Part shown: one piece after another, positions 5,009-31,784 of the stretch
Position numbering within the stretch: the stretch's first letter is position 1
Layout: every line of letters starts with the position of its first letter
Source: Thermococcus kodakarensis KOD1
GTDB taxonomy: Archaea > Methanobacteriota_B > Thermococci > Thermococcales > Thermococcaceae
DNA: 32,000 nucleotides
Assembly (NCBI RefSeq): GCF_000009965.1
Contig: NC_006624.1
Coordinates: forward strand, 1,680,001-1,712,000
Reading direction: 5' to 3'
Notes under the pieces: generated by a model
Told to the model about the DNA's origin: nothing
Seen by the model: the letters and a program-made list of their open reading frames with translations, nothing else
The model's database searches: none
Program-made: the position numbers and the translations under genes

Positions 5009-6163
5009 TTAAGTTCTCAGCGGTTCAGGAATCGCCTTGTCCCACTGCTCCTGAGCAAGCTCGCCGGTGTACTTGAACTTCTCGACCTTCTTTTCTGCCT
5101 CCTTCCTCTTCTTCTGGTGCTCCTTGAGGAACTTCTGGACGCGCTCGATCAGCTCGCGCTTGCACTGGCCGCAGGTCAGCTCGCCAGCTTTACAGGCGCG
5201 GTAGCGCTCCATGAGCTTCTCGTCGTCGGGTTCAAAGAAGATCTCAAACCACTTGAAGACGACGCACTTCTCCGGGTTCCCGCCCTTCTCGCGCTGCTCC
5301 TTGAGCGTTGGTTGGCCGCCGGTGAGGGCGAACTTCCATATCTTCTTTCCGGCCTCCTCGGGGTCGTCCGTGAGGTAAACGGCAGTTTCGGGCTTGCTCG
5401 CGCTCATCTTGCCCTCCAAGCTGGTCAAACCTGGCACGAACTTTGAGTGTATTGCAGCAGTCTTGTAGTAGCCAAGGCTTTCGGCGAAGTCCCTCTGGAG
5501 CCTCCAATAAGGATCTTGATCTATTGCCGCCGGAATGAGACAGCGCTTCTTCTCGAAGAAGGTTGGAGCGGCCTGTATTGCTGGATAGAATATCATTCCA
5601 ATCTTGCTCTGCTCGTTGAAGCCAAAAACAGCCCTCGCCATCGAGAAGTTTATCTTCTTCGCTATCGGGAGGGCCATCTCGTAAATCTTGGTAAACTCAC
5701 TGTTCTGGAAGATGAATGTCTTGTCCGGGTCAAAGCCTACCGCTATGATATCCAGAATGTTCTCGTAAGCCCACCTCTTGGTGTCCTCAAAGCTCAGCTT
5801 CTCCTTGAAGAGGAACTTCTCGTCGTCGGTTATCTGGATGTAGAGGTTGACGTCGAAGTTCTCCTGGAGCCACTTGGTAGCGAAGAACGGGATTATGTGG
5901 CCGATGTGCATCGGGCCGCTCGGACCCCTCCCAGTGTAGAGGAAGAAGCCCCTTCCACTCTCATAATCCGCTAAAACCTTGTCGTAGTCCCTGTGGGAGA
6001 AGAAGAACCTCCTCCTGAAGAACAGAGGCAGCTCGCTCTTCGTGAGCTCTGCGGTCTTCTCTATCAGCTCGTCCGTCAGCGGGCTGGTTCCGAACTGCTC
6101 TATCAGCTTGTTGTAGTCCACGACACCCTCAACGTCCCATGGGGTAACCTTAAAGTCGTCCAT
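5009..6163 (-). CDS. trpS: Tryptophan--tRNA ligase (archaeal/eukaryal type)
   Basis: 384 aa with the class I motifs HIGH (PSGPMHIGH) and KMSAS, plus overall TrpRS-like sequence. A GGAGGTG RBS lies 5 nt upstream of the ATG. Confidence 0.95.
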   Translation of the reverse strand: MDDFKVTPWDVEGVVDYNKLIEQFGTSPLTDELIEKTAELTKSELPLFFRRRFFFSHRDYDKVLADYESGRGFFLYTGRGPSGPMHIGHIIPFFATKWLQENFDVNLYIQITDDEKFLFKEKLSFEDTKRWAYENILDIIAVGFDPDKTFIFQNSEFTKIYEMALPIAKKINFSMARAVFGFNEQSKIGMIFYPAIQAAPTFFEKKRCLIPAAIDQDPYWRLQRDFAESLGYYKTAAIHSKFVPGLTSLEGKMSASKPETAVYLTDDPEEAGKKIWKFALTGGQPTLKEQREKGGNPEKCVVFKWFEIFFEPDDEKLMERYRACKAGELTCGQCKRELIERVQKFLKEHQKKRKEAEKKVEKFKYTGELAQEQWDKAIPEPLRT

Positions 6164-6177
6164 TCAAACACCTCCGC

Positions 6178-6198
6178 TTCCAGTGGAAACCAAACTCC
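6178..6198 (+). promoter_or_regulatory. ORB-type box TTCCAGTGGAAACCAAACTCC (origin-recognition-box core without G-string) upstream of trpS
   Basis: The 21-mer is identical to the one at 25552-25572 and shares the dyad plus AAAC..AACTC extension with the ORB boxes at 31324-31674. It lies 15 nt upstream of the trpS ATG. Confidence 0.5.
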
Positions 6199-6342
6199 AG
6201 ACTAAGGCGGTGCAGAAGAGGGATTCCTCACCAAAGCCAAAAACGACCACCGAGCATGGAAGAAGAAATGGCGGAGAGATTTTAAAGTTTTTGGGTGCGA
6301 AAGTGTTTTTAGGAAAAGGGAACACATCCAATTGGTGGGAGT

Positions 6343-6519
6343 ATGGAGGTAGTTGAGGCTATTTATGAAAACGGCGTCCTCAAGCTCAAGAAAAAGCTCA
6401 ACTTACCCGACGGTACCGAGGTCAGCGTTAAGCTCATTCCCAAGAAAATATCCGAGAAGACCTTTGGAATCGTGAAGCTTGAGAAAGAGGAAGCTGACAA
6501 GCTGATCCAGGACTTATGA
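6343..6519 (+). CDS. DUF104 / AF2212-type small 'antitoxin-family' protein (58 aa, below the ORF-track cut-off)
   Basis: Own translation: MEVVEAIYENGVLKLKKKLNLPDGTEVSVKLIPKKISEKTFGIVKLEKEEADKLIQDL*. The N-terminus fits the DUF104 pattern (A.YENGVLK....L.L.EG..V.v.i). GGTGGGAG lies just upstream of the ATG. Confidence 0.7.
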   Translation: MEVVEAIYENGVLKLKKKLNLPDGTEVSVKLIPKKISEKTFGIVKLEKEEADKLIQDL

Positions 6520-24730: not shown

Positions 24731-25504
24731 TCACACAAACATCGTCTTCAGCACATCGGCACAGCCGCAGTGCCTCTCCTCTGGGATCTTCGGGATGCCC
24801 TTCTTGAGGAGCTCCTGAACCTTGTAGTTGTTCTCGGCCATGACCTTGAGGACCTCCTGGGCATCTACTGGCTTGTCAGCCCAGACGTCGTAGTCGGTGA
24901 CGGTCGCTATGTTGACGTAGCACATTCCAAGCTCGCGGGCGAGGTTTACCTCCGGGACAAGGGTCATTCCGATGATGTGGGCGAACTGGCGGAACATGAA
25001 GCTCTCGGCCCTTGTGGAGAAGCGCGGGCCTTCGATGCAGACGTAGGTGCCCTTCTCGTGGACAGGGAAGCCAAGCTCCTTGGCCGTCTCGTAGAATATC
25101 TTCCTCATCTCAGGACAGAATGGATCGGCCATGGAGACGTGGGCAACGCGCGGCCCGTTGTAGAAGGTGTAGTCCCTCTTCTTGGTGAAGTCGATGAACT
25201 GGTCAGTTATGACGATGTCCCCGGGCTTGTACTCCTCGCGCAGCGAACCAACGGCCGTGATTCCAATAACCCTCTCGACGCCAAGCTCCTTGAGGGCCCA
25301 GATGTTGGCCCTGTACGGGACTTCGTGCGGTGGGAACTCGTGGTGCTTGCCGTGGCGCGGAATGAAGGCAACCTCAACGCCCTCGATCTCTCCTATTTCC
25401 ACTGGAGCTGAAGGCCTTCCATACGGGGTGTGCACCTTAACGGTCTCCTTAGGCTCGAAGACGCCGTAAACTCCAGAACCGCCGATAATACCTATCCTCG
25501 GCAT
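24731..25504 (-). CDS. mtnP: S-methyl-5'-thioadenosine phosphorylase
   Basis: [14 protein letters not shown]..., [14 protein letters not shown] and ITAVGSL are MTAP/PNP-family motifs. GGTG lies just upstream of the tandem ATGs at 25510 and 25504. The 315-aa track ORF is an upstream read-through artefact. Confidence 0.92.
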
Positions 25505-25551
25505 GGTCATCACCGTGTTGATTGGGCGCTTGGATAATATAAGGGTTGCCT

Positions 25552-25572
25552 TTCCAGTGGAAACCAAACTCC
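25552..25572 (+). promoter_or_regulatory. ORB-type box TTCCAGTGGAAACCAAACTCC between the divergent mtnP and PAC2 core promoters
   Basis: Identical to 6178-6198. It is flanked by a minus-strand TATA (CTTATATTAT, ~25531-25540) and a plus-strand BRE/TATA (GAAAG-TTTAATAA, ~25573-25585). Confidence 0.5.
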
Positions 25573-25619
25573 GAAAGTTTAATAACCTTTGGAAACTAAA
25601 GTTTTCCGGAGGTGAGAGA

Positions 25620-26348
25620 ATGGAGAACGGGAAGCCGGTCAAGCTCGTCCTGCCTGAGGTCAAGAACCCGATTCTCATAGAGGGCTACCCCGGGATAGGC
25701 CTCGTGGGTCATATAGCGGCGAACTTTCTGGCGAAGGAGCTGAAGATGGACATGATAGGCTACGTAGAAAGCCCGTTCTTGCCGCCGATGGCCCTGATCC
25801 TTGAGGGGAAGCCGAACCCGCCGCTGAGGTTCTACGGAAAGGACAACATCATAGTTGCGGTAGCGGACATCTACGTCCCACCCACGCTCGTCAACGAGAT
25901 AGCCAAGGAGCTTGTGAACTACCTGAGCGAGATGAAGGCCGAGAAGGTAATTTCGATGGGCGGCATAGGGATAGGCTTCTTCAAGGAGCAGCTTGAGGTC
26001 TGGGGCGTCGGTTCCAGAGATGAGCTCAACAAGGAGCTTGAGGAGAAGGGGGTTAAGATACTCCAGTACGGCTCGATAATGGGCATGAGCGGGAAGCTCC
26101 TCTGGGAAGCTAGCAGGAAGGGCCTGAACGCCTACGCGCTAATGGGTGAGACCTTCGGCGACAGGCCCGATCCGAGGGCAGCAGCAAACGTCCTGGAGGT
26201 AGTCAAGAAGCTCACCAGCCTCGACTTCAGCACTGAGCCTCTCCTCCAGGAGGCCAGGATGATAGAGGAGCAGCTGAGGAAGATGCACGAGCAGATGGAG
26301 CAGGCCAGACAGAGGGCCGAGAAGCAGTACGAGAGCCTGTACCTGTGA
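25620..26348 (+). CDS. PAC2-family proteasome assembly chaperone/activator homologue (PbaB-like)
   Basis: [19 protein letters not shown] is a PAC2/COG1938 N-terminal motif. A C-terminal coiled coil ends in ...SLYL, a hydrophobic-Tyr-X (HbYX) type terminus. A GGAGGTGAG RBS precedes ATG 25620. Confidence 0.85.
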
Positions 26349-27531: not shown

Positions 27532-30042
27532 TCAGTCCTCGACTCCCTTCTCGGTTATCCTGAAGACCGCCTCCCCCTCGGGAAGGTGCGGGCTGTCTAT
27601 CAGGCGAGCGACCCTCTTTCCGGCCTTGCCCTTACGGAGATAGACCCTGAGAGTGGCGCTGTGGGCTAGGATGTGGCCGCCGACAGGCCTCGTAGGATCA
27701 CCGAAGAAGGCATCCGGTTTCGCCTGAACCTGGTTGGTTACAAAGACCGCTATGTCGTAGAGGTCTGCCAATCTGTGGAGGTCGGCGAGGTGCTTGGCGA
27801 GCTTCTGCTGCCTCTCAGCCAACGTGCCTCTTCCCACGTACTCGGCACGGAAGTGCGCCATGAGTGAATCCACGACGAGAAGTTTTACAGGCCTGTCGCT
27901 CTCAGCCTTCTCCTTGATTATCTCCTCGGCCTTCTCGACGAGGAGCATCTGGTGGTTGCTGTTGAACGCCCTCGCAACGTAGATGTTCTTGAGGGTCTCC
28001 TCAGGATCGAGGCCGCGGTTTTCGGCGATCTGCTTTATCCTCTCAGGCCTGAAGGTGTTCTCAGTGTCAATCCAGATGACGGAACCGCCGAGACCACCTT
28101 CCTCGGGCGGCTTCTGAACCATGACAGCAAGTGTGTGGGCGAGCTGGGTGTTGTGGAGCACGAGACCGTTCGGTGCGATGAAGTTGTGGGTCTCTGGAAT
28201 GACCAGATCGTAGACCCAGTCGTTGTAGTCAACGACCTCAACGGACGAGACTTCGTGGAACTCCAGCCTTCTCGCGAGCTCTATCGTTTCTAGGGCAAGC
28301 TTTGCAACTCCCTCCAACCTCTCAATCTCCTTGAGGAGCGCTGAAACAACTTTCTCCTTCAGCTCGGGCCTCTTTGGAAGTCCTCTCGTCCGGTAGTTCG
28401 CCACCTGCCTGTCTGTAAAGCCGTACTTCGTGATGGCCGTCCACGGGAACGGGAGCTCGGGTTTATCGCCCATTTCCAGTGCCTTTCTGGCCTCGGAAAG
28501 CTTCTCAAGGGCTTCCCTAAAGTATTCTTCTATCCTGGAGAGAGTCTTCTCGGTGAACCACACATTCCTGCTTCTCGTGAGTATGTGGTAAGCCGTCTCA
28601 TTGTCCCTCTTAGGCAGTCTGAACTCCGAGTAGAGCTTTCCAAGGAACTTGCCCAGGGCGGGTGGATACCTGCCAACGCCGCCCTCGTTCATCTCGCCCG
28701 GCTTTATGCGGCTCTTCTCAAGGACTTTCTCGAAGGTCTTCCTGTCTTCACCCGTTATGTAGATGCGGTAGTAAACGCTTCCCTCGATTGTTTTCTGAGA
28801 GATCCTCGGAGTTATTCCAAGCCTCTTAAGTAGGAAGACAAGTCCATCGGCGAGCTCACGGCTCTTTGTGACCAGCTCAACTATTGACTCGGTTAAATAG
28901 CCATCCCCATCCAAGTATCCAGCCAGAAACGCCGCGATGGCAGATTCTCCAGCGTTCAGCACTCTCTCGGGAACGACTTTCGTTGATGCGTTTGACGTGG
29001 CAAGCTCACCGAGCCACTCGGCGGTCTTCTTTCTAAAGAGTATCCTGTAGAGACCGCGTCTTACCTCAACCGTCGGAGTGTAGCCGTCGTGATCTTCGAT
29101 AAAAGAAACTATGAAGTCCTTAAGCTCCTCGGATCCTGTTGTTATGGAGAGCGGGTTCGAAGTACCCTCGGCAACGAACAGGCCGAGGAAGTAAGCCTCG
29201 GACTCCTCAATGGTAGCTGCGTTAGCAGGAACGCTTCTTATGCCAACGATCAGGTCACCCGGCTTGATCATGCCAGCTGGAACCCACTGGAGCCCGTTCC
29301 TGAAGACGAGAACCGGATGCAGTAGCGTGATCCTGAGGAGATATCCATTGGAAAGCCTTATCTCGGCAAGCTTCTCGACCTTTTCACGGTATATGTAAGA
29401 GGCCTTCGTCCTCTTTACCTCACCTGTTTTAGGGTCAAATGTGTAAACCGAGACCGTTTCCAGTGGAACCGCGTAGCCGTTGTCGAATGGAACCTCTCTT
29501 CCGAGGGATGCGTATTTGTGATACATATCCTCGATGGACTCAAAGTGAACTAGCGTATCGTTCTCGTAGTAGACCTTGGTGTCCTTTGCGAAGCACTTTC
29601 CACTGCCGAACTCACCGAATACCTCCGTGATGGCCTGCGTCTCAATGCCGCCGCCCAGGAGCTTGTCGAGGGCTTTGCTTCCAGTGGAAATCTTGCCTAT
29701 TGTGGTTCTCCTCTTCATGTACTCGTCGGCGCGCATGAAGGTTCCAATGTTAGCTGCCTCTCTTGCGGCCTGGATGATCTTGAGTGCGGCACCTTCGCTT
29801 ATCCCCGCTATCTCCTTAAGCTCCAGCGGCGAGGCAACCGCTATTGCCTCTATCGTGTCGTAACCAGCCTCGCGAAGCTTTTCAGCGGTGGCAGGACCAA
29901 CGCCAGGGAGATCCTCAAGAGCGGAGATTTTTTTCTCTGGCTTTGACTGCTTATCCGACGATGAAAGTGACTCTTCAACATCGAGCTCTTCAAACTCCTC
30001 AAGCTCTTTGACTTCATCTTCAACCTTCTTTTTGCGGGCCAT
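27532..30042 (-). CDS. radA: DNA repair and recombination protein RadA, interrupted by one intein
   Basis: HhH N-terminal domain ([27 protein letters not shown]). Walker A is split as GEFGSGK|C...HN|TQLAH. Walker B is KLLVVDS. The C-terminal RecA fold is intact. Exteins total ~354 aa. ATG 30042 was chosen after GGGTGATGATG. Confidence 0.95.
28150..29595 (-). mobile_element. RadA P-loop intein (482 aa) with LAGLIDADG homing-endonuclease domain
   Basis: It begins with Cys (CFAKDTKV, codon 29595-29593) and ends with HN (codon for N at 28152-28150), followed by the +1 Thr. The two LAGLIDADG blocks are [11 protein letters not shown] and [12 protein letters not shown]. Length is exactly 1446 nt, in frame. 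Confidence 0.9.
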
Positions 30043-30218
30043 CATCATCACCCAATACCTTTGATGTGGGTAAAACATGGGGAGGTTATATACTTTATGT
30101 CCCTCAGGGACTTGGCAATGAAACTTTTAAGAATTTCGTCCGATTCTAGAATCAAACTGTAAAAGACCCATATTTTACAATAGCAGCCAGGAAAGAATAT
30201 TAAACAGAAAATAAGGGA

Positions 30219-31250
30219 TTAAATGCCGTTATCCCCAACCTCCCGAAGGACTATGAGCTTTGAACCCTCTGGAACCGGGGAGTCAAGCCTTGGAACGAGC
30301 ACTGGGCGGTTGGTGTAGTAACCCATCACGTACAAATTATACTTCCTCTGAACCAGCTCAAGCGCTTCCGAGTACTTCACACCCCAGACTTCTGGGAGTT
30401 CAACCACGGTGATGTCGTACCCTCCAAGGGAGCTTGTTATGTCGTCAATGACGTCCACAACTTCAGGCTCGATGACGGCGCTGGCGAGCAGCCTACCCGC
30501 TAGACCTCTGCTGAGGATAACCCTGTCGGCCCCAGCCTGTTTCAACAGGTCTATGCTGTCCGCGCTCAGGGCTTCCACGAACACCTTTGCACCGGAAATG
30601 CTCTTGACACGGAGGGTCACGAAGACCGACTTCGAGTCATCGTCGAGAGCCAGAACAACATGGGAAGCACTCTCGACCCGGGCCCTTTCGAGTGTCTCCT
30701 TATTGATGGGGTCACCTATAAGAACCTCGACTTCCTCTGGAAGCTCAACCTTCCTGCGCTCTTCTTCGTTAGGGAATACCACAACAACTGGCCTGTGGGG
30801 AACCTCTCCTCGGCCCATCGCAGAGAGTATCTCGTCCACAAAGCTGGCCACGCTACTACCCTGCCCGATTACAACGTAATGTCCCGAGTACCCAACACGG
30901 TGCATGCCCATCATCCTCCTAAGTGAGGAAGAAATTAGGAATTCAGCCAGAAGGGAAACGAGGGCCGTAAAAGTAGAGATGCCCGCGACCGCCGCAACCA
31001 TAGCAACTATTCTTCCCGCCTCCGTCTGAGGGGTTATATCACCGTAACCTATCGTCGCCATGGTTATTACGGCCCAGTAGAAGGCAGTGAAGAAGTCCAG
31101 CCCTTCAAAGTACGCAAACAGTCCGGCAAAGACTAAGGAGAGAACTATCACAGCAGCACCTATCTGTAGGAGCTTGCTCCGCCTCACCCGATATCTAATC
31201 TTAACAAGCCTGCGGATTACAGTTATCGGTATCATCGTTGTGGTGTGCAT
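30219..31250 (-). CDS. Potassium channel with C-terminal RCK/TrkA-N domain (MthK-like)
   Basis: Two TM segments plus a pore loop carrying the selectivity filter TIGYGD. The RCK Rossmann motif is VVIGQGSSVASFV. An alternative start at Met6 (31235) would fit a TATA-like TTTTTAAC at ~31262. Confidence 0.85.
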   Translation of the reverse strand: MHTTTMIPITVIRRLVKIRYRVRRSKLLQIGAAVIVLSLVFAGLFAYFEGLDFFTAFYWAVITMATIGYGDITPQTEAGRIVAMVAAVAGISTFTALVSLLAEFLISSSLRRMMGMHRVGYSGHYVVIGQGSSVASFVDEILSAMGRGEVPHRPVVVVFPNEEERRKVELPEEVEVLIGDPINKETLERARVESASHVVLALDDDSKSVFVTLRVKSISGAKVFVEALSADSIDLLKQAGADRVILSRGLAGRLLASAVIEPEVVDVIDDITSSLGGYDITVVELPEVWGVKYSEALELVQRKYNLYVMGYYTNRPVLVPRLDSPVPEGSKLIVLREVGDNGI

Positions 31251-31323
31251 GCAAGGGGTTAAAAACGTTGGGACGTGGTTAAGTGAACTTTAATGAACAT
31301 AAGAATACCACTAGGCACAAGTT

Positions 31324-31344
31324 TTCCAGTGGAAACGGAACTCT
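31324..31344 (+). repeat. ORB box a (no G-string): TTCCAGTGGAAACGGAACTCT
   Basis: Dyad TTCCAGTGGAA plus the AC..GAACTCT extension. It forms an 18/21 inverted repeat with 31373-31393. Confidence 0.75.
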
Positions 31345-31366
31345 TTTTCGATACTCATCGAAAAGA

Positions 31367-31393
31367 CCCCCCAGAGTTTTATTTCCACTGGAA
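31367..31393 (-). repeat. ORB box b (full, with G-string): TTCCAGTGGAAATAAAACTCTGGGGGG on the minus strand
   Basis: The reverse complement of 31367-31393 gives dyad + AAACTCT + G6, matching the archaeal ORB architecture. Confidence 0.8.
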
Positions 31394-31648: not shown

Positions 31649-31674
31649 CTCCACTGGAAACAGAACTCTGGGGG
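31649..31674 (+). repeat. ORB box c (full, with G-string): CTCCACTGGAAACAGAACTCTGGGGG
   Basis: Dyad + AAAC..GAACTCT + G5 on the plus strand, in inverted orientation relative to box b. Confidence 0.8.
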
Positions 31675-31784
31675 ACTACAAAATTGTTTATTTTTTGAGA
31701 TTGCGAAAACAAAGATGTTTTCTAAAAATGATCCCTTTTGTCCATCATTGTTCGTGTTTTCATGTATATCCCTGTTCATTCCTC

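Follow-up and report, generated by a model that had tools for sequence, protein, structure and literature searches.

We analyzed a stretch of 32,000 nucleotides of the Thermococcus kodakarensis KOD1 chromosome (NC_006624.1, positions 1,680,001 to 1,712,000), hereafter called the window and used for all position numbers, and in particular the 115-bp spacer 25505-25619, which is the exact gap between TK1895 (mtnP) and its divergent neighbour TK1896, a gene of the PAC2 family. The window was placed through the product of TK1896, which is 100% identical to the KOD1 protein, and through gene coordinates in a published expression table. TK1895 has been described as encoding the enzyme that serves as adenosine phosphorylase in the pentose bisphosphate pathway (PMC9700705). 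Within this spacer lies a 21-nt element, hereafter box B, of the type of the origin recognition boxes (ORBs) present in the replication origin oriC, while an identical element, box A, lies upstream of the tryptophanyl-tRNA synthetase gene trpS (table 1). Box B fills the space between two predicted promoter elements, each composed of a TFB recognition element (BRE) and a TATA box, namely the minus-strand GGCAACCCTTATATTAT and the plus-strand GAAAGTTTAATAA. Both elements are kept in orthologous spacers, including those of species lacking the box, and the PAC2 TATA CGAAAATTTAATAACC is kept in orthologues at a variable distance from it. An earlier note on this DNA had described the two elements: the plus-strand GAAAG/TTTAATAA lies exactly where it was placed, whereas the minus-strand TATA CTTATATTAT is present but 3 nt away from the position given.

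Two Identical Origin-Type Boxes

Boxes A and B align with no mismatch over 21 nt. The identity stops exactly at the ends of the 21-mer and the flanks on both sides are unrelated, which rules out a larger repeat or a mobile element. None of 100 dinucleotide-preserving shuffles yields a match even at three mismatches, and only 2e-4 repeats of 21 nt are expected in 32 kb under a uniform model, so that the previous claim of an identity unlikely to arise by chance holds, though about 17 of the 21 shared positions are constrained positions of the motif. The 13-mer core is found 19 times in the window when up to two mismatches are allowed, against 0.94 expected, and its perfect form, the palindrome TTTCCAGTGGAAA, has a sole other copy at 31323-31335. 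Recent copying or gene conversion between the two boxes is not needed to account for their identity, since in related species the differences between box A and box B are confined to free positions; box A of T. kodakarensis is itself one base off the usual form at trpS.

The dyad core TTCCA-N-TGGAA is perfect at 25552-25562 and at 6178-6188, and it is followed by the extension AAAC-CA-AACTC, to be compared with AAAC-GG-, AAAT-AA- and AAAC-AG-AACTC in the oriC ORBs of the same genome. The dyad and the pattern AAAY-NN-AACTC are thus common to the boxes and the origin ORBs, as the earlier note had recognized together with the lack of the G-string: in place of the GGGGG of a full ORB, GAAAGTT comes after box B and AGACTAA after box A. 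With its 13-bp core containing the TTCC and GAA motifs and its AACTC extension, box B resembles the mini-ORB/ORB3 class in sequence. Both boxes are solitary, present in a single copy per spacer and not accompanied by an AT-rich region, and form neither the clusters in which mini-ORBs occur within oriC or dp1 nor the inverted clusters of full ORBs around an AT-rich unwinding region beside cdc6. Box B is located 5.7 kb from the edge of oriC, in agreement with the 6 kb estimated before, and box A at a distance of 25 kb.

Table 1. Positions of the boxes, promoter elements and genes considered in this work (window positions, unless a metagenome locus is given)
Feature	Position	Strand	Remarks
Box B	25552-25572	+	ORB-type 21-mer TTCCAGTGGAAACCAAACTCC; dyad plus AAAC-CA-AACTCC extension, without G-string
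Box A	6178-6198	+	identical 21-mer TTCCAGTGGAAACCAAACTCC; trpS leader, 2 nt upstream of the Shine-Dalgarno sequence
13-bp palindrome	25551-25563		perfect palindrome TTTCCAGTGGAAA, strongly constrained core of box B
mtnP BRE/TATA	25534-25550	-	GGCAACCCTTATATTAT, predicted from sequence conservation
Minus-strand TATA	25534-25543	-	CTTATATTAT
PAC2 (TK1896) BRE/TATA	25573-25585	+	GAAAG TTTAATAA (whole element GAAAGTTTAATAA); adjoins the AACTCC end of box B
TK1895 (mtnP)	24731-25504	-	PNP_UDP_1 nucleoside (adenosine/methylthioadenosine) phosphorylase (Pfam, locus tag)
TK1896	25620-26348	+	PAC2-family proteasome assembly chaperone, divergent neighbour (Pfam)
TK1874 (trpS)	5009-6163	-	tryptophanyl-tRNA synthetase
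Trp-rich upstream open reading frame	6228-6257	-	MLGGRFWLW and stop; 5' end of trpS mRNA, leaderless
trpS BRE/TATA	6278-6295	-	CCCAAAAACTTTAAAATC (TATA 6279-6287), ~21-22 nt upstream of the AUG of the upstream reading frame
20-mers at deoC/eno, purF/purC and tpiA	L019:3302-3321, L069:1691-1710, L041:4598-4617, L068:1373-1392		contexts in other Thermococcales
oriC	between 31251 and the window end		two inverted full ORBs flanking an AT-rich stretch
Palindromic box without G-string	31322-31344	+	TTTTCCAGTGGAAACGGAACTCT (TTCCAGTGGAAACGGAACTCT at 31324); TK1900-proximal edge of oriC
Full oriC ORB with G-string	31365-31393	-	TTCCAGTGGAAATAAAACTCTGGGGGGTC (TTCCAGTGGAAATAAAACTCTGGGGGG)
Full oriC ORB with G-string	31649-31676	+	CTCCACTGGAAACAGAACTCTGGGGGAC (CTCCACTGGAAACAGAACTCTGGGGG at 31649); other side of the AT-rich region
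radA (TK1899)	27532-30078	-	intein-bearing
K+ channel gene	30219-31250	-

Conservation of the Boxes across Thermococcales

A 20-mer pattern that requires the extension, TTCCASTGGAAAYNNAACTC, was scanned in one genome per species, with an expectation by chance of about 6e-5 matches per genome. It returned 103 loci, of which about 40 are bacterial, at about chance level, the rest belonging to metagenome-assembled genomes (MAGs) of Thermococcales; per-genome counts rest on these MAGs, because cultured Thermococcus and Pyrococcus genomes are missing from the returned set, even that of KOD1 in which at least four matches must exist, a gap that also qualifies any negative result from this collection. 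Spacers upstream of mtnP were also gathered independently of the pattern; their sources were metagenome contigs found through the PAC2 gene, loci that had been retrieved for their oriC matches, and complete genomes of named organisms.

By context, the matches in Thermococcales are distributed among oriC ORBs with G-string, ORB3-type boxes with a C-rich tail inside the dp1 gene, the edge of oriC on the side of radA, the region upstream of mtnP (seven loci) and that upstream of trpS (nine loci). In MAGs with several checkable contigs, the matches outside oriC and dp1 are those of mtnP and trpS, plus a single intergenic one (L064:1784).

We collected 21 distinct mtnP spacers carrying the box, including those of T. 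siculi and of a genome similar to T. cleftensis, at loci having a G+C content of about 0.45-0.57. The mtnP box is absent from P. furiosus, Palaeococcus pacificus, T. barophilus and five low-GC MAG loci (G+C 0.38-0.49), as well as from a metagenome locus of G+C 0.54 (L116) in which the region upstream of MTAP is wholly different. Absence takes the form of a clean indel, locus L018 reading ...TTTTCG-TT-GGCAACCC... (...AAATTTTCG-TT-GGCAACCCTTAAATA...) where box-positive species have the 21-bp box. As to box A, T. celer, T. piezophilus and T. radiotolerans have it and Thermococcus sp. P6 has a degenerate form, but it is missing from T. barophilus, T. paralvinellae and Palaeococcus, all of which keep the short upstream open reading frame (uORF) of trpS. 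Within the high-GC Thermococcus clade both boxes thus occupy conserved orthologous sites, while Pyrococcus, Palaeococcus and the T. barophilus group cleanly lack them; this absence indicates that the mtnP box is a derived, clade-specific feature. The conservation in orthologous spacers that the earlier note had proposed to check is therefore found within the high-GC clade but does not extend to these other groups.

Selection on the Palindrome and Its Spacing from the mtnP Promoter

Across the 21 mtnP spacers, the 13-bp palindrome TTTCCACTGGAAA (TTTCCAsTGGAAA) shows a pairwise identity of 0.96 with 10 of its 13 columns invariant, the mtnP BRE/TATA a mean pairwise identity of 0.90 with 9 of 14 columns invariant, and the background, taken as the spacer between the mtnP TATA and the Shine-Dalgarno sequence, an identity of 0.59 with 2 of 22 columns invariant. 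The corresponding identities at trpS are 0.94-0.97 for the palindrome and 0.58-0.69 for the background. At both sites, then, the palindrome is under strong purifying selection.

The distance between the palindrome and the mtnP TATA is always 8 nt in the same 21 spacers, with the palindrome adjoining the BRE, irrespective of what is found beyond the box. Between the box and the PAC2 promoter, instead, there are 0 nt in T. kodakarensis, some 8 nt at locus L060, some 25 nt at L040 and over 600 nt at L143, where a gene encoding 122 aa is interposed. This combination of fixed and variable spacing implies that the box belongs to the mtnP promoter and that its contact with the PAC2 BRE is lineage-specific. 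The previous description of a box set between two divergent promoters is correct insofar as the element lies directly upstream of two BRE/TATA elements in T. kodakarensis, but it is to mtnP, not to the PAC2 gene, that the element is tied. Its position relative to the BRE/TATA is fixed across species and its constraint exceeds that of the surrounding spacer, as is found in operators.

A longer palindrome of 17 bp (C at -3 and G at +13), hinted at by the biased set of pattern matches, was not upheld in the unbiased mtnP spacers.

The fixed spacing bears upon an alternative in which the boxes would be satellite Cdc6 sites serving the biology of the origin (looping to oriC, domain marking, titration or loading), with their adjacency to promoters being incidental. 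Although mtnP and oriC are syntenic in all Thermococcales examined, 1-6 kb apart, and trpS usually lies within tens of kb of oriC, neither looping nor titration needs the invariant distances of 8 nt from the mtnP TATA and 2 nt from the trpS Shine-Dalgarno sequence, and low-GC Thermococcus and Pyrococcus share the synteny without having the box. The third box lacking a G-string at the edge of oriC and the ORB cluster of dp1, a precedent for Cdc6 sites flanking the origin, would fit such satellites, but trpS is about 73 kb from oriC in one MAG contig and oriC itself is dispensable in T. kodakarensis. Moreover, one site titrates little protein, and a titration role for a single box is unlikely. 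On balance we consider this alternative improbable.

The Copy in the trpS Leader

Aligned regions upstream of trpS contain, in this order, the TATA CTTTAAAT (identity 0.98), an ORF of 7-10 codons, a variable stretch, the box and the Shine-Dalgarno sequence GGAGGTG, which box A precedes by 2 nt. Transcription start site (TSS) data are available for T. onnurineus, and among the orthologues of TK1895, TK1896 and TK1874 trpS alone has a TSS therein. The primary TSS of this trpS orthologue gives a 5' untranslated region of 95 nt, which equals the distance from the AUG of the uORF to that of trpS; hence, the uORF is leaderless, and the position of box A, about +70 to +90, falls within the transcribed DNA. 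The second copy is located in the transcribed leader of trpS, not in a promoter, so that of the earlier statement regarding a copy in an unrelated intergenic region the sequence identity stands while the location has to be amended.

Since this copy is transcribed, it might be considered an element of the leader RNA; both copies could also be non-functional relics of ORBs that were copied into permissive spacers, given that they occupy places tolerant of insertion (divergent promoters and the gap between uORF and Shine-Dalgarno sequence) and that their presence or absence amounts to a clean indel. For the RNA, RNAalifold returns -2.56 kcal/mol with 0 compensatory pairs and no supported fold, and no part of the window matches Rfam at gathering score, the trpS leader (6100-6400) giving only a chance-level match with E = 9. 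A known RNA family or a structured RNA at the trpS copy is rejected on these results, which leave an RNA role for the trpS box without support; as for the mtnP copy, it precedes both of the TATA boxes, where transcription is not expected. Relics, on the other hand, are hard to reconcile with a palindrome kept at 0.94-0.97 within spacers at 0.58-0.69, which argues for purifying selection. We thus hold this pair of explanations to be very improbable; like the satellite sites, they fit poorly with the fixed spacing and the pattern of selection.

The uORF deserves a separate mention. Its relatives encode MPGDCFWPW (in several species), MCGDCFWLW, MFGDCFWLS and MPSGDVFW, each followed by a stop; all are Trp-rich and have 7-10 codons. 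The uORF, with orthologues at L020, L029, L039, L052, L055, L106 and L135-L141, is kept from Palaeococcus through Thermococcus, including species without the box. It looks like a leader peptide of the attenuation or arrest type for TrpRS in an archaeon. RNAalifold supports no alternative hairpins in the trpS leader, and we found no description of this uORF in the literature searched.

Cdc6/Orc1 as Candidate Binding Protein

The interpretation that we favour, while giving it about even chances, is that box B may be a solitary, ORB3-like site of Cdc6/Orc1 lacking the G-string, which would have been recruited as a promoter-proximal operator of mtnP in high-GC Thermococcus, with the trpS box as its second copy. 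It is suggested by analogy with ORB3 of P. furiosus, a 23-bp box without G-string (TTCCAGTGGAAATAAAACTCTCT) that Cdc6 binds half-maximally at about 240 nM, compared with 110-150 nM for full ORBs, and which belongs to a dp1 cluster occupied by Cdc6 in vivo (PMC1904270). Like box B, ORB3 has the TTCCAGTGGAAA dyad followed by Y-NN-AACTC, no G-string and a location outside the oriC intergenic region. It differs in lying within the coding region of dp1, in a mini-ORB cluster beside cdc6, and in having G at position -1 and a C-rich tail, whereas box B stands alone in an intergenic spacer, with T at -1 and at a fixed distance from BRE/TATA. In view of the half-maximal value for ORB3, binding of Cdc6/Orc1 to box B is plausible. 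What the sequences show is the identity to ORBs, the constraint on the palindrome, the fixed spacing from the mtnP promoter and the clade-specific pattern; which protein binds, and whether it activates or represses, is inferred.

In the proposed mechanism, TK1901, the only Cdc6/Orc1 of the cell, would bind the palindrome, as one or two monomers, in the same way as it does at the ORB3 and mini-ORB sites of oriC and dp1. The bound initiator, which bends DNA, may then modulate the assembly of TFB and TBP at the mtnP promoter, as suggested by the fixed phase at which the site adjoins the mtnP BRE (and in T. kodakarensis that of PAC2 too); a site immediately upstream of the BRE is where archaeal activators usually bind. 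In the trpS leader, this complex would be located at about +70 to +90 and could act as a roadblock to elongation beside the Shine-Dalgarno sequence. How strongly mtnP, a gene of nucleoside catabolism, and TrpRS are expressed would consequently depend on the amount or nucleotide state of the initiator, as is known for DnaA.

In bacteria, the promoters of dnaA, nrdAB, guaBA and others contain DnaA boxes, a case of an initiator site reused as an operator outside the origin, including at genes of nucleotide metabolism. The protein family and the domain of life are different, and regulation has been established by experiment there while it is deduced here. Among archaea, non-origin sites of Orc1/Cdc6 have been detected by sequencing of chromatin immunoprecipitates (ChIP-seq) in Sulfolobus, where orc1 mutants have altered transcript profiles, in part according to unpublished data (PMC3607249). 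Non-origin occupancy and influence on transcription in Sulfolobales (PMC3607249; PMC9738581) thus resemble what we propose, but Orc1-2 is a specialised non-initiator paralogue that regulates the DNA damage response through a short motif of its own (PMC9738581), whereas there is only one Cdc6 in Thermococcus, and the motif considered here is no other than that of the origin. In P. abyssi, Matsunaga et al. (2007) reported 30 scattered 13-bp repeats, the role of which they left open (PMC1904270). These have in common with boxes A and B the 13-bp core outside the origin, but their number and position vary among the three Pyrococcus genomes and are not conserved (PMC1904270), unlike the orthologous positions that boxes A and B keep, under strong constraint, across many Thermococcus species. 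As ideas, neither mini-ORBs outside the origin nor initiators in the role of transcription factors are new. We found no description of positionally conserved, promoter-linked ORB-type boxes in Thermococcus, or of these two sites, in the literature searched.

Several observations weigh against Cdc6/Orc1 as the binding protein. First, the 8-nt ORB extension at mtnP has an identity of 0.58 with one of eight columns invariant in the 21 spacers, that is, about the background level as opposed to the 0.96 of the palindrome, so the target of selection at mtnP is the palindrome rather than the part specific to ORBs. The extension is not kept in about half of the orthologous mtnP spacers, where variants such as AAGGGCG, AGCCCC and GACTCC are seen, and a symmetric 13-bp palindrome as the only thing visible to selection is typical of a homodimeric regulator. 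Second, position -1 is T in 21 of 26 promoter-associated boxes, box B among them, and G in 21 of 24 origin ORBs and in all 10 dp1 ORBs, counts that include orthologous sites and hence few independent comparisons. T at -1 makes the promoter-associated boxes perfect 13-bp palindromes, which tend to end in AACTCC, while origin ORBs end in AACTCT plus the G-string (24 of 24, by construction of the class); T. siculi and locus L143 have G at -1 in their mtnP box. This systematic difference could mean a different binder for the promoter boxes. Third, oriC is practically the sole Cdc6 site in P. abyssi by ChIP-chip at 5-kb resolution (PMC1904270), albeit in a genus that lacks these particular boxes. 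In the same organism, a region with an isolated 13-bp repeat was unbound and a single mini-ORB was bound weakly in vitro (PMC1904270). Fourth, deletion of cdc6 in T. kodakarensis has no growth phenotype, both Cdc6 and oriC being dispensable (PMC5663688). Finally, our literature search found neither chromatin immunoprecipitation or mobility shift data on boxes A and B nor ChIP-seq of Thermococcus Cdc6.

The strongest rival, a dimeric regulator other than Cdc6, takes up most of these points. TTTCCAsTGGAAA would be the operator of a homodimeric factor, coinciding with the mini-ORB core or deriving from it, and the extension would be a relic. It would be favoured by the symmetric 13-mer alone being constrained at mtnP, by the perfect symmetry that T at -1 confers in comparison with the G of origin and dp1 ORBs, by the absent or weak binding of single mini-ORBs in P. 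abyssi and by the lack of phenotype in the cdc6-deleted strain. To these may be added the location directly upstream of the BRE, which is the usual position of archaeal activators, for instance Ptr2, TFB-RF1 and SurR in its activating mode. The sites of these regulators resemble box B in being palindromic and at fixed spacing right upstream of BRE/TATA, but their sequence is unrelated and the cognate regulator of box B is only a candidate. To our knowledge, no regulator of Thermococcales recognizes this motif, and in a full-text literature search with the core sequence the archaeal matches were replication papers only. Against the rival stand also the AACTC extension, which is found at the correct offset at both independent sites (with a probability of about 1e-3 per site by chance) and is better kept at trpS (0.79-0.85), and the two sites per genome, a small regulon for a dedicated regulator. 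We judge a non-Cdc6 factor to be less likely than Cdc6, yet a serious alternative. Under either reading, the boxes probably take part in gene regulation.

Conservation of Cdc6 and oriC in T. kodakarensis despite their dispensability raises the question of what other roles the initiator has, and the boxes render this question concretely testable. Should Cdc6 bind them, an archaeal initiator would for the first time have a defined operator outside the origin in Euryarchaeota, and nucleoside catabolism and tRNA charging would be tied to the status of replication. Should it not, the boxes would constitute the operator of another regulator overlapping the origin code, with possible competition at oriC.

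A wider set of targets can be envisaged from additional matches in other Thermococcales. In MAGs of lower-GC lineages, 20-mers of the full ORB type without G-string occur in the spacer between DeoC and enolase genes and upstream of DeoC (two species), in the spacer between PurF and PurC, where a TATA-like element is about 1 nt away, and before the TATA of TIM (tpiA) at a distance of 13 nt. Each of these contexts was seen in one or two genomes only, and they are ascertainment-biased because the search pattern required the extension, a further point to be set against the involvement of Cdc6. They hint, at the sequence level, at a theme of nucleoside and central carbon metabolism that would suit TK1895 as well. 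It is a tentative extension, to which we give less than even credence, that the single Cdc6/Orc1 of Thermococcus may be bifunctional, at once initiator and transcription factor of a small regulon (TK1895 and TrpRS, elsewhere deoC, purF/purC and tpiA) acting through solitary ORB-type boxes. If true, this would be an archaeal counterpart of the DnaA regulon and would explain why cdc6 and the box sequence are retained though Cdc6 and oriC are not needed for growth.

Two further candidates were discarded. In the T. barophilus group, radA is preceded by boxes that might have been a third promoter target, but these are about 110 nt upstream of its conserved TATA and are more readily taken for the edge of oriC; T. 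kodakarensis has no radA-upstream box. A viral or plasmid origin was likewise rejected, since the ten IMG/VR matches look like chance, each consisting of a single core without G-string.

Features around oriC and radA

Between the box at 31322-31344 and the ORB at 31365-31393, which point towards each other, there is a 20-nt palindrome, TTTTCGATACTCATCGAAAA, and a related ...AACTC(A/T)ATTTCGATGAACATC context recurs beside the K+ channel gene in several MAGs (L002, L049, L050 and L084). Perfect or near-perfect mini-ORB cores are also present in coding DNA, at 29456-29470 and 29677-29691 in radA and at 25395-25407 in TK1895. The core at 29677, which codes for the conserved motif I-S-T-G-S of RadA, is found again in radA of T. 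barophilus (L106:10621); such cores could be a coincidence of coding or part of an origin-flanking cluster like that of dp1.

A block comprising MTAP, PAC2, DUF473 and NucS genes is linked to oriC across Thermococcales. In P. furiosus (L104:2982-6729) MTAP directly adjoins oriC and cdc6, while in Thermococcus RadA and sometimes the K+ channel gene are interposed. The intein of radA carries a LAGLIDADG homing-endonuclease domain (Pfam Intein_splicing and LAGLIDADG_3), and several radA orthologues from MAGs align as two blocks, consistent with intein-free alleles. In T. barophilus, the interval between radA and cdc6 that holds oriC includes a gene of the HTH_78/DUF8183 type (L106:12076-12690), where T. 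kodakarensis has the K+ channel gene.

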